Below are positions 38,493 through 64,000 of a stretch of 64,000 nucleotides of DNA, one piece after another (positions within the stretch are counted from its first letter, which is position 1; the number at the start of each line of letters is the position of its first letter). The position numbers and the translations under genes are program-made. The notes beneath the pieces were generated by a model, which worked only from the letters and a program-made list of their open reading frames with translations, did no database searches and had not been told where the DNA came from. This DNA is from Anaerolineae bacterium (GTDB lineage Bacteria > Chloroflexota > Anaerolineae > UBA1429). The stretch spans positions 1,152,001 to 1,216,000 of the forward strand of contig OY776562.1 in NCBI GenBank assembly GCA_963675785.1, given 5' to 3'.

Positions 38493-38522
38493 ATTATAGT
38501 CGCGTTATGTGCAGTTTGTCAA
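38493..38522 (-). promoter_or_regulatory. Consensus sigma70 promoter of the kinase operon
   Basis: TTGACA-18 nt-TATAAT on minus strand. Confidence 0.75.
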
Positions 38523-45278: not shown

Positions 45279-45666
45279 GGGGATGACTGGCTTCGACAGG
45301 GACGGCTGGTCAGAGATTGCAGGTCGGGGCGCCTGGACCTCGTTATTAACTGGGCAAAATTTAGGTGCCAACAACACTTTTGAACCGGAATATGCTTTCG
45401 CCGCGTAGGCGATAGCCTCTGTTCCATTGACTGACTCAAGTCAGTCACGTTTGACCCGAGCTTTGTCCGAGAGGTCGGTGTCAGGCGTCGAACAATTCGG
45501 ATTGCTGCCAACCAGGACGCCGCTAGCGGTTGGCTCAAGACAAGGCGGCTGGTGTCGATAGACCTGTCTATTGGTAACATCGACGCGAGATAACATAGAT
45601 AGACTAAACCTGTAGTATATCGCTGGTCGAACTCTTTGGACGCGGGTTCGATTCCCGCCATCTCCA
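45279..45666 (+). ncRNA. ssrA: tmRNA; tag peptide ANNTFEPEYAFAA* at 45367-45408
   Basis: GGGGATG/CATCTCCA acceptor stem with G3-U, TTCGAC D-loop, GACGCGGGTTCGATTCCCGC T-arm, TATAAT upstream; CCA not encoded. Confidence 0.97.
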
Positions 45667-45674
45667 CAGAACTT

Positions 45675-61818: not shown

Positions 61819-61981
61819 GAATTGCTCACTTTACAGGTTGCAGGATATCGTAGGGGTGATAGTAGACGCAAAGCGTCTTTCGCGCAACAGCACTGTGCTT
61901 GCCGCTCAGGTGATTGCCTTGCCAGCAGGCCAGGCCCGAATTAGTATAAGTTAGGTGACGCTATACACAGGAGGGAATGAC

Positions 61982-62497
61982 GTGGAGTTCGAGGAATTGA
62001 TTCGATCGCGCTACAGCGTCCGCCGGTATACCGACCGCGCTGTGCCCGATGACGTTCTAGAGCGCATCATCGAGGCTTTTGTTCTGGCGCCTACGGCAGC
62101 CAACCGCCAACCTCTAGGTTTGGTAGTGATTAAAACAGCGGGCCGCGAGGACGACCTTCGCCGCATCTACAACTCTGATTGGTTTGCTGCCCAGCCGCCC
62201 TATGTACTGGCTGTGTGTGCAGATAAAGAACAGGCTTGGGTAAGACGCTCTGATCACAAGAGCTTTGCCGATGTGGATGCCGCCATTGCTATGGATCATC
62301 TAGTGCTCGCTGCTGCCAATGAAGGCCTGGGAACTTGCTGGATTGGCGCCTTTGATCCCGAGGCTGCACGGCAGGTATTGGCCTTACCCGATACAGTCGA
62401 GTGTATTACTCTGACACCATTGGGATATCCGGCGGATATAGCAGGTGAGAAACGGCGCAAAAGCCCGGATCAGCTCGTTCATCGTGAGCGCTGGTAG
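61982..62497 (+). CDS. Nitroreductase family protein
   Basis: RYSVRRY, APTAANRQP, GLGTCWIG. Confidence 0.93.
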   Translation: MEFEELIRSRYSVRRYTDRAVPDDVLERIIEAFVLAPTAANRQPLGLVVIKTAGREDDLRRIYNSDWFAAQPPYVLAVCADKEQAWVRRSDHKSFADVDAAIAMDHLVLAAANEGLGTCWIGAFDPEAARQVLALPDTVECITLTPLGYPADIAGEKRRKSPDQLVHRERW

Positions 62498-62499
62498 AC

Positions 62500-62537
62500 A
62501 AAAAGAACCGATGCTGGAGATGTATTCCAGCATCGGT
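62500..62537 (-). terminator. Intrinsic terminator (T-tract on minus strand)
   Basis: ACCGATGCTGGA-7 nt-TCCAGCATCGGT then TCTTTTT on minus strand. Confidence 0.85.
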
Positions 62538-62540
62538 CTT

Positions 62541-62760
62541 GAACAGGAGGCTGCTATCGTCACACTGACTGCACATGTTGCAGATTTCACTGCGCGCCGT
62601 TGGACGTCTGTTTCCTGTGTCTCGCCTACTCAAGGACCACAGACCGCCATGTGATGGATAACTCGCCGCTTGCCATCGCTTGGTCGATTATGCCGCTCTT
62701 GCCAAATCCAACTGTCGCGTTACGTGCCTGCCAAGCGTTCGATCAGTCAGTCCCCTGTAC
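62541..62760 (-). ncRNA. Unclassified ~220-nt multi-helix, pseudoknotted RNA
   Basis: Six 6-8 bp helices including a crossing pair; starts at predicted TSS, ends at terminator; no RBS-led ORF. Confidence 0.7.
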
Positions 62761-62764
62761 TTAT

Positions 62765-62794
62765 ACTATAGCGGAAAATATCATATTATGTCAA
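62765..62794 (-). promoter_or_regulatory. Sigma70 promoter of the candidate ncRNA
   Basis: TTGACA-18 nt-TATAGT on minus strand. Confidence 0.7.
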
Positions 62795-62841
62795 TAGTCA
62801 TAAGCTTTTCTTAACCCTTGCCAATGCTTTGCGACCTCTGA

Positions 62842-63666
62842 CTAGGCTAGATTGGCCACATCCAACCCCTCGTTTTCCAGCATCAGGTTCAATTGCCGGG
62901 CATTCTGAATAGCATAATCTGCAGCGTTATTGTTAAACAACAGATGCAGCTCATCTACGCCCTGCGCAGCCAATTCGTGAATTCGCGGAACCCACTCTCC
63001 TAGCTCCTTGCCGCTGTAGAGATAGTCAAAGCGCTCGCCAGTGGTTTTGACCTTGGCATACCACATCTGAGCATTGCGTCCATGAAAACGAACTAGGGTT
63101 GTTGCAGGATTGGTCACCGCCAATACAGTGGGCACACTGCCCATGCCCAACTGAGGCTCATCCACAATGGTGAGTCCCAATCTGGCCGAGTGCAATTGGC
63201 TCACCAATTCCGGAACATGGTCGCCAACAAGCCAACTGCGATGGCGGAATTCAACCGAGAGTTGGTCGTCGGGAAAAGCTTGACGCAATCCTAGAATGTA
63301 GGACACATTCTCCGGTCGATAAACATACCAGGGCGGGAACTGACAATTGATCACACCCAGCTTGTCAGCTTCTCGTAGTGGTCCGATGCTCTTGGAAAAA
63401 GCGGCCGTATTGGCCGCCTCTGGTGGGTTCTGGCGGTCGTGCCAGGTGATCTGTTTGTAGGGTTTGATATCAAAGACGAACCTGGGTGGCGTGCGTTCTG
63501 CCCACAGTGCATAATTGCGCTCAGGCATCATACGGTAATAGCTGCTATTGATCTCGACCAGGCTAAAATGCTGTGCATAATACCCGATTTGTTGATTCGA
63601 TGGCAGCCCCGGTGGGTAAAAGCCGGTATGGTCGCTCCAACTACAGGTGCCCACATAGATGCGCAT
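62842..63666 (-). CDS. DUF72 domain protein
   Basis: IYVGTCSW, VEINSSYY, QFPP, EFRH.SW, RFHGRN, YLYS..EL. Confidence 0.93.
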   Translation of the reverse strand: MRIYVGTCSWSDHTGFYPPGLPSNQQIGYYAQHFSLVEINSSYYRMMPERNYALWAERTPPRFVFDIKPYKQITWHDRQNPPEAANTAAFSKSIGPLREADKLGVINCQFPPWYVYRPENVSYILGLRQAFPDDQLSVEFRHRSWLVGDHVPELVSQLHSARLGLTIVDEPQLGMGSVPTVLAVTNPATTLVRFHGRNAQMWYAKVKTTGERFDYLYSGKELGEWVPRIHELAAQGVDELHLLFNNNAADYAIQNARQLNLMLENEGLDVANLA

Positions 63667-63668
63667 GG

Positions 63669-64000
63669 CTACGCCTGACCTCCATTTCCTGCAGGCATTT
63701 TCATCTCCTGCAAGAGCTTCCAGCAGCGCAGCAGTGCACGGGGAACGTGAAAGGGGCCTTTCCACATCGAGCCTTTCAGTTGCAGGGCTACCGAACCGTC
63801 GCGATGGAGATAGCCGTACCACTCGCCATATTCTGGATCGGGGAAATGGCCCCAGGCATAGTTGTGGATGCGCTCATACCACATCTCATAAGCCTCATTG
63901 CTAGTGAGTTGGTAAGCTAGCAACAACGCATAGAGAGCCTCTGTGTGGGGCCACCACAGCTTCATATCCCACTCTAGCTGCTCTGGCGGGTAGCCTTTGG
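63669..64000 (-). CDS. AGE family N-acylglucosamine 2-epimerase (3' part only)
   Basis: QLEWDMKLWWPH.E, YGEWYGYL.RDG, KGPFHVPR. Confidence 0.92.
   Translation of the reverse strand, partial: KGYPPEQLEWDMKLWWPHTEALYALLLAYQLTSNEAYEMWYERIHNYAWGHFPDPEYGEWYGYLHRDGSVALQLKGSMWKGPFHVPRALLRCWKLLQEMKMPAGNGGQA

Follow-up and report, generated by a model that had tools for sequence, protein, structure and literature searches.

The window analysed here (the whole stretch of DNA under study, 64,000 nt in length, to which positions refer) contains, on its minus strand and between two protein-coding genes, what is best explained as a stand-alone small RNA (sRNA) gene, lineage-restricted to this species or genus, whose product would act in trans as a regulator; we place the probability of this reading at approximately 0.6. 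In the proposed scheme, a sigma-70-type promoter (62794-62765) would drive a minus-strand transcript that starts near position 62758 and ends at an intrinsic terminator (62538-62500), yielding an RNA of ~255 nt with the terminator and a body of ~220 nt. The 5' and 3' ends of this body would form a closing stem, long and imperfect, around two or three hairpins, and the closing stem and the terminator hairpin would protect the ends of the RNA. The RNA would most likely operate as a trans-acting regulator, either by base pairing or by protein binding, and without Hfq; the ends, strand, fold and mode of action of the transcript are those that we infer from the analyses described below. This reading is based on a promoter of an enriched class with 11/12 consensus matches and a strong terminator ~220 nt downstream of it, on a non-coding unit that has no match in Rfam in a genome whose housekeeping RNAs are located elsewhere, on contigs from RNA libraries, on the better folding of the minus strand, on a hint of constraint from a related sequence, and on the restriction to one lineage as judged against a 6S RNA control. 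If real, the locus adds one apparently expressed, unclassified sRNA to this bacterial class, and offers a handle on Hfq-independent RNA regulation in the class.

The promoter TTGACA-18-TATAGT given in a preliminary description of this locus is present as described, and the body of ~220 nt followed by a terminator, also proposed there, was confirmed: the unit is ORF-free, and a terminator scan places a strong intrinsic terminator on the minus strand ~220 nt downstream of the promoter (Table 1). Promoters reaching 11/12 matches were encountered at 157 sites genome-wide (3.22 Mb, both strands), compared to ~25 expected from base composition, while three sites in the window attain 11/12 or better, the promoter of the RNA being among them. 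The transcription signals exceed chance expectation, whereas the list of helices discussed below does not. No credible ORF was found in the RNA unit, the two mechanical ORFs on the minus strand (68 and 75 aa) both reading through the terminator; as regards a small peptide, a 16-codon ATG frame was seen by eye in the unit, and it is devoid of a Shine-Dalgarno sequence. With a promoter and a terminator of its own, both of which are consensus matches, and with no ORF, the locus presents the generic characteristics of a stand-alone sRNA gene, and its assignment as a non-coding unit that is transcribed independently from the minus strand, predicted from these signals, is supported.

Table 1. Position of the predicted RNA unit, its signals and structural elements, and its flanking genes in the window
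Feature	Position	Strand	Basis and remarks
-35 hexamer TTGACA	62789..62794	-	promoter scan; 11/12 consensus matches, 18-nt spacer
-10 hexamer TATAGT	62765..62770	-	same promoter scan, as TTGACA-18-TATAGT unit
Predicted RNA body, ~218 nt	62541..62758	-	start near 62758 inferred from position of -10 hexamer
Intrinsic terminator	62496..62538	-	13-pair stem 62538-62506 with 7 G-C pairs, 7-nt loop, then CTTTTTGTCT
5' arm (CGCGACAGTTGGA) of helix previously described as a pseudoknot	62707..62719	-	pairs with 62593-62604, nested in minimum free energy (MFE) structure
3' arm (TCCAACGGCGCG) of the same helix	62593..62604	-	nested in MFE and centroid structures
Hairpin GCAG-UGAAAU-CUGC	62580..62593	-	pair probability 0.98
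Upstream flanking gene, DUF72 family (outside RNA)	62842..63666	-	Pfam PF01904, E 1.5e-54
Downstream flanking gene, nitroreductase family, convergent (outside RNA)	61955..62497	+	Pfam PF00881, E 3.7e-26

The terminator hairpin (62506-62538) is positioned 9 nt beyond the point at which the convergent nitroreductase gene stops. An A-run flanks the hairpin on its other side, and the two transcription units may share it, the U-tract being good for the minus strand only. Elsewhere in the window, two divergent strong promoter-like sites occur ~550 nt apart, at 38522 (minus strand) and 39073 (plus strand), with the sequences TTGACA-18-TATAAT (12/12) and TTGACA-17-TATGAT (11/12), respectively.

When public runs were searched with the 2-kb stretch 61900-63900, several RNA libraries with small shares were returned, two of which were compared along with two DNA metagenomes. 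On this stretch, run X18, labelled as a wastewater metatranscriptome, yielded a single contig of 184 nt that spans 62534-62717, and run X20, labelled as a freshwater metatranscriptome, yielded a single contig of 185 nt that spans 62564-62748, each being 100% identical to the window with 0 differences. These two contigs, which originate from two studies, are situated wholly within the predicted transcript (62758 to ~62500), and no contig of either run was placed on the flanking genes, uncovered parts counting as no finding. The contigs represent a hint that the predicted unit is expressed, with the proviso that they carry no information on strand, ends or level and that RNA libraries can carry DNA. 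The runs X11-X17 and X19, with shares of 0.07-0.11, are not taken as evidence of expression or habitat. The source sample may be among runs X1-X8, whose shares are 0.53-1.00.

The DNA run X9 contains a contig of a ~95%-identical relative, which covers 62692-62924 with 9 differences in 233 nt. Eight of these differences are listed by position, and all eight map to 62760-62762 or to sites upstream of it, leaving both promoter hexamers and the covered 67 nt of the RNA body (62692-62758) free of listed differences. As one low-depth contig, and over 67 nt only, this provides a weak hint of constraint on the RNA body and its promoter.

The same contig bears on the possibility that the transcript has no function at all, and that a strong promoter which arose by chance in an AT-rich spacer fires towards a terminator shared with the convergent gene. 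A functional RNA and a well-expressed neutral transcript look alike when a single sequence is known, as is the case here, and the failure to find a homologue, the modest structure signal and the young age of the spacer (all discussed below) would fit such a transcript. The near-consensus promoter belongs to a strongly enriched class, however, the hairpin carries its U-tract on the minus-strand side, and the 67 nt of the body represented in X9 are free of listed differences, on which grounds we regard a functionless transcript as quite unlikely. A neutral transcript, a protein-titrating RNA, an orphan leader and a member of a complex-fold class (see below for the latter three) each have less support than an sRNA gene.

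The evolutionary age of the spacer may be judged from the genomic neighbourhood. Orthologues of the upstream DUF72 gene are present in 37 of the 41 family genomes, while none of the other neighbours in the window (AGE, nitroreductase, MBL-fold and MFS genes) was found in the fetched flanks of 28 DUF72 loci. Gene order around DUF72 is therefore not conserved in relatives, indicating that the spacer is evolutionarily young, and, since no neighbour is shared across the DUF72 loci, synteny has no power for finding homologues of the RNA. No island signal was detected by composition around the RNA locus. With regard to the DUF72 gene itself, the mechanical ORF of 326 aa (62842-63822, minus strand) is probably over-extended, the likely start being the ATG at 63666, which is preceded by GGAGG and is located 2 nt past the TAG stop codon (63671-63669) of the upstream epimerase-like ORF; furthermore, the ORF is matched by Pfam from residue 69 onwards and aligns with relatives from approximately residue 45. 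Two metagenome relatives (DUF72 ~63% identical) carry a tRNA-Leu(taa) gene directly after DUF72, at positions 2342-2425 of locus L009 and 1794-1877 of locus L010, and the TTGACA-type promoter box of this tRNA gene overlaps the stop codon of DUF72. The ~640 nt past the tRNA in L010 are without an ORF of at least 80 aa on the strand shown.

Comparison with known RNA families substantiated the earlier statement that the RNA belongs to none of them. When the whole window was searched with Rfam 15 (4227 models) at gathering thresholds, only the tmRNA at 45279-45669 passed and no family was returned at the RNA locus, while a search of 62400-62900 at E <= 10 produced four chance matches of 13.8-18.4 bits, against thresholds of 57-116 bits, all of which lie on the terminator hairpin. 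The earlier exclusion of RNase P, SRP, 6S and tmRNA also holds, as all four were mapped elsewhere in the genome. A 6S identity was rejected, with model RF00013 giving no match at the RNA locus and one of 68.9 bits at G000:C1:2011488-2011651; an SRP RNA identity was rejected in view of a large SRP RNA at 2179699-2179960 (169.6 bits), the small SRP model matching the same locus as the large one; an RNase P RNA identity was rejected in view of the gene at 2638071-2638442 (315.1 bits); and a tmRNA identity was rejected in view of the tmRNA gene in the window. The latter gene is located on the plus strand and is a standard one-piece gene (180.7 bits in Rfam), for which ARAGORN gives the tag peptide ANNTFEPEYAFAA. 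No tRNA-like gene was reported by ARAGORN at the RNA locus.

Among the RNAs with which the locus may be compared, 6S RNA and the Y RNAs have 5' and 3' ends that pair in a long stem, and 6S RNA adopts a rod-like fold with one large central bubble. The RNA of this locus resembles 6S RNA (RF00013) in its size class, in the pairing of its predicted ends in a long imperfect stem and in being an independent gene, yet it differs in that its interior appears branched in the single-sequence prediction, without a single large bubble, in that it has no RF00013 match at E <= 10, and in that it was not found in the family, 39 of whose 41 genomes conserve 6S RNA. The likeness to Y RNA/YrlA, the partners of Ro60/Rsr, consists of the long terminal stem formed from both ends and of a hairpin that the preliminary description likened to a T-loop. 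The genome, however, has no gene for such a partner (0 matches to PF05731, TROVE, at E <= 0.01 in G000, in a search whose controls, Deinococcus radiodurans and Bacteroides thetaiotaomicron, were both detected), which speaks against a Y RNA; in addition, there is no Y RNA match, and no tRNA-like element was found by ARAGORN in the window.

These comparisons bear on whether the RNA sequesters a protein in the manner of 6S RNA, Y RNA or CsrB, with the closing stem and internal loops titrating that protein. Such a role would be in keeping with ends that pair in a long imperfect stem, with the presence of the RNA in RNA libraries and with the lack of an Hfq for the classical base-pairing route. It is nevertheless unlikely, given that the canonical 6S RNA is encoded elsewhere, that no Ro/TROVE gene is present, that neither 6S nor Y RNA matches at E <= 10, that the predicted interior is branched and without one open bubble, and that repeated GGA-type motifs are absent from the sequence as inspected by eye.

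A search for Hfq (PF17209) likewise returned 0 matches at E <= 0.01 in the genome, whose completeness is estimated at 94.84%. Lacking both Hfq and a Ro/TROVE gene, the genome offers no known chaperone or partner that can be named for the RNA. Stand-alone regulatory sRNAs that work without Hfq are exemplified by the RsaE/RoxS type of the Firmicutes. The predicted unit is comparable to these in having its own promoter, its own U-tailed terminator and no ORF, and furthermore in length (tens to a few hundred nt), in narrow phylogenetic range and in a host genome without Hfq. It is unlike them in that, at ~220 nt, it falls at the long end of this range, and in that no C-rich or recognisable seed loop was seen, the only CCUCC of the RNA being buried in the closing stem. 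As regards potential targets, short-word BLAST of the RNA against its own genome gave chance-level matches only (longest perfect match 14 nt, E 2.5), and duplex folding against 3283 crude translation-start regions produced long multi-loop duplexes everywhere (mean -35.5, sd 6.4 kcal/mol) and was uninformative. No report on small RNAs of this bacterial class surfaced in the literature search, which is not proof that none is in print.

A function in cis as a riboswitch or leader of the next gene was rejected, as no aptamer family matches and the downstream gene is convergent; the earlier judgement that a cis riboswitch is unlikely is in agreement with this, the next gene being the nitroreductase gene on the opposite strand. 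A related option is that of an orphan leader, i.e., a riboswitch-like element or attenuator whose downstream gene has been lost, or whose constitutive termination yields an sRNA. Precedents are SreA and SreB of Listeria, small RNAs derived from riboswitches, which the locus resembles in having a structured 5' domain with a terminator directly after it and no regulated gene downstream, and from which it differs in that it matches none of the known aptamer classes and suggests no ligand. The order of the elements (promoter, ~220 nt of structure, and a terminator that directly adjoins the closing stem at its 3' strand) and the existence of two alternative folds of similar energy would suit an orphan leader. 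Set against this are the missing match to a known aptamer, the absence of a following gene on the same strand, the next gene being convergent, and the fact that the searches of relatives revealed no related leader preceding a gene, which together render an orphan leader very improbable indeed.

The preliminary description proposed a set of helices with a long-range pseudoknot and viewed the locus as a ribozyme-scale or RNP-forming RNA. All complements of its helix list are present: the four helices given with coordinates are exact reverse complements, and ACAGGGG/CTCCTGT, ATGG/CCAT, GCAG-TGAAAT-CTGC and the two arms CGCGACAGTTGGA/TCCAACGGCGCG occur where that description placed them. The number and length of the helices are, however, at the level expected by chance from dinucleotide shuffles. 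At minimum lengths of 5, 6, 7 and 8 bp, the sequence contains 18, 7, 2 and 1 perfect Watson-Crick stretches, respectively, compared to shuffle means of 18.35, 4.95, 1.19 and 0.26, and these counts were reached by 170, 68, 101 and 69 of 300 dinucleotide shuffles, respectively.

Folding of the 221-nt body yielded an MFE of -80.3 kcal/mol with a z of -2.32, matched by 3 of 200 shuffles (z -2.94 in a separate set of 60 shuffles). The 261-nt stretch that includes the terminator reached -103.3 kcal/mol and a z of -4.47 (0 of 200 shuffles), a value that is largely due to the terminator hairpin. The minus strand folds better than the opposite (plus) strand, for which -70.0 kcal/mol and a z of -1.51 were obtained. 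For calibration, RNAs of the same genome gave z values of -4.96 (6S), -5.5 (RNase P), -3.52 (tmRNA) and -0.52 (SRP), while 40 random 221-nt segments of the genome had a mean z of -0.46 (sd 1.03), with two of the 40 at or below -2.3. The body is in approximately the top 5% of random segments, a modest folding signal that is at most suggestive.

Both the MFE and the centroid structure, which are single-sequence predictions, exhibit a long imperfect closing stem and a branched interior. The helix formed by 62719-62707 and 62604-62593, which had been interpreted as a crossing interaction, is an ordinary nested helix in the MFE structure, with a duplex energy of -13.6 kcal/mol and a pair probability of 0.75-0.99, and a long-range pseudoknot is consequently not needed. 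Three other helices of the earlier model (ACUGACUG/CAGUCAGU, CGCUUGG/CCAAGCG and CACAUG/CAUGUG) have approximately zero probability in the ensemble, while its remaining four helices have probabilities of 0.90-1.00. When the nested helices of that model were forced, an energy of -65.3 kcal/mol was obtained, compared to a free MFE of -80.3; with the crossing duplex of -13.6 added, that model comes to approximately the MFE energy, before any pseudoknot penalty. By this calculation, a pseudoknotted conformer may be energetically possible, and no result requires one.

In the genome collection that was searched for homologues, the species of the window alone represents its genus. BLAST with 301 nt against 40 relatives gave no match. 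R1, a covariance model derived from this one sequence folded as its MFE structure, detected nothing in the 41 other family genomes at E <= 0.01 (best match 15 bits, E 0.58), and a model that used the nested helices of the preliminary description (R3) detected nothing in these 41 genomes at E <= 1. As a positive control, a model built likewise from the genome's own 6S RNA (R2) recovered 6S RNA in 39 of the 41 family genomes at E <= 0.01, from which it follows that the method is able to detect a structured RNA conserved across the family. Judged from these sequence searches, the RNA would be either absent from the family genomes or much faster-evolving than 6S RNA.

Wider searches gave a similar picture. 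The order-level search with R1 covered no genomes beyond the 42 already in the family search and added nothing. Across 150 sampled genomes of the class, R1 returned nothing except one 85-nt match at E 0.05, and BLAST against 400 sampled class genomes returned matches of 26-58 nt in six genomes (E 0.002-0.005), all in unrelated sequence; R1 gave no full-length match on those six genomes. When run without filters on 24 DUF72 loci (85,072 bases), R1 produced four matches at E <= 0.05, all of 63-98 nt, and the two alignments shown (both from L016) consist of outer-stem hairpins with the interior of the model deleted; on the metagenome loci L008-L011 it likewise found no homologue (best E 0.074). 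Collections of phages and plasmids yielded no match to the RNA, and genome and viral contig collections scanned for exact patterns gave 0 matches.

These results weigh on the notion that the RNA is the first member of a new complex-fold class, a ribozyme or RNP scaffold held together by a pseudoknot between 62719-62707 and 62604-62593. Its size of ~220 nt, the multi-branch prediction, the absence of a match to a known family and the near-equality in energy, before a pseudoknot penalty, of the nested helices plus crossing duplex and the MFE structure are compatible with such a class. Known complex-fold RNAs are, however, usually conserved well beyond one genus, and here the searches of 41 family genomes (by both structure models), 150 class genomes (by model) and 400 class genomes (by BLAST) revealed no homologue, whereas the 6S control was recovered almost throughout the family; moreover, the helices are at chance level, the supposed crossing helix is nested and three of the proposed helices have approximately zero probability. 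The RNA is not conserved in the family, while 6S RNA, searched in the same way, is conserved, which speaks against the ribozyme-scale RNA originally put forward and against an ancient RNP RNA, and we consider a new complex-fold class decidedly improbable. On present sequence comparisons, the RNA falls outside the described families, nor is it a complex-fold RNA with wide conservation. It currently opens no new class of ribozyme or RNP RNA, as there is no evidence for an elaborate conserved fold even though the method could detect conservation at the family level, as seen for 6S RNA. Very unlikely, too, is a new class of switching RNA that toggles between the nested and pseudoknotted folds upon binding of a ligand or protein and acts in trans, its close relatives being missing from the collections. 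A narrow distribution is typical of base-pairing sRNAs and untypical of ribozymes or RNP scaffolds, which is consistent with the preferred reading of the locus as a lineage-restricted sRNA gene.

The family-wide search with the 6S model also returned two adjacent matches on one contig of another genome, G003:C79:173-341 and 432-598, at 39.1 and 74.8 bits, respectively, which could represent a tandem duplication of 6S RNA.
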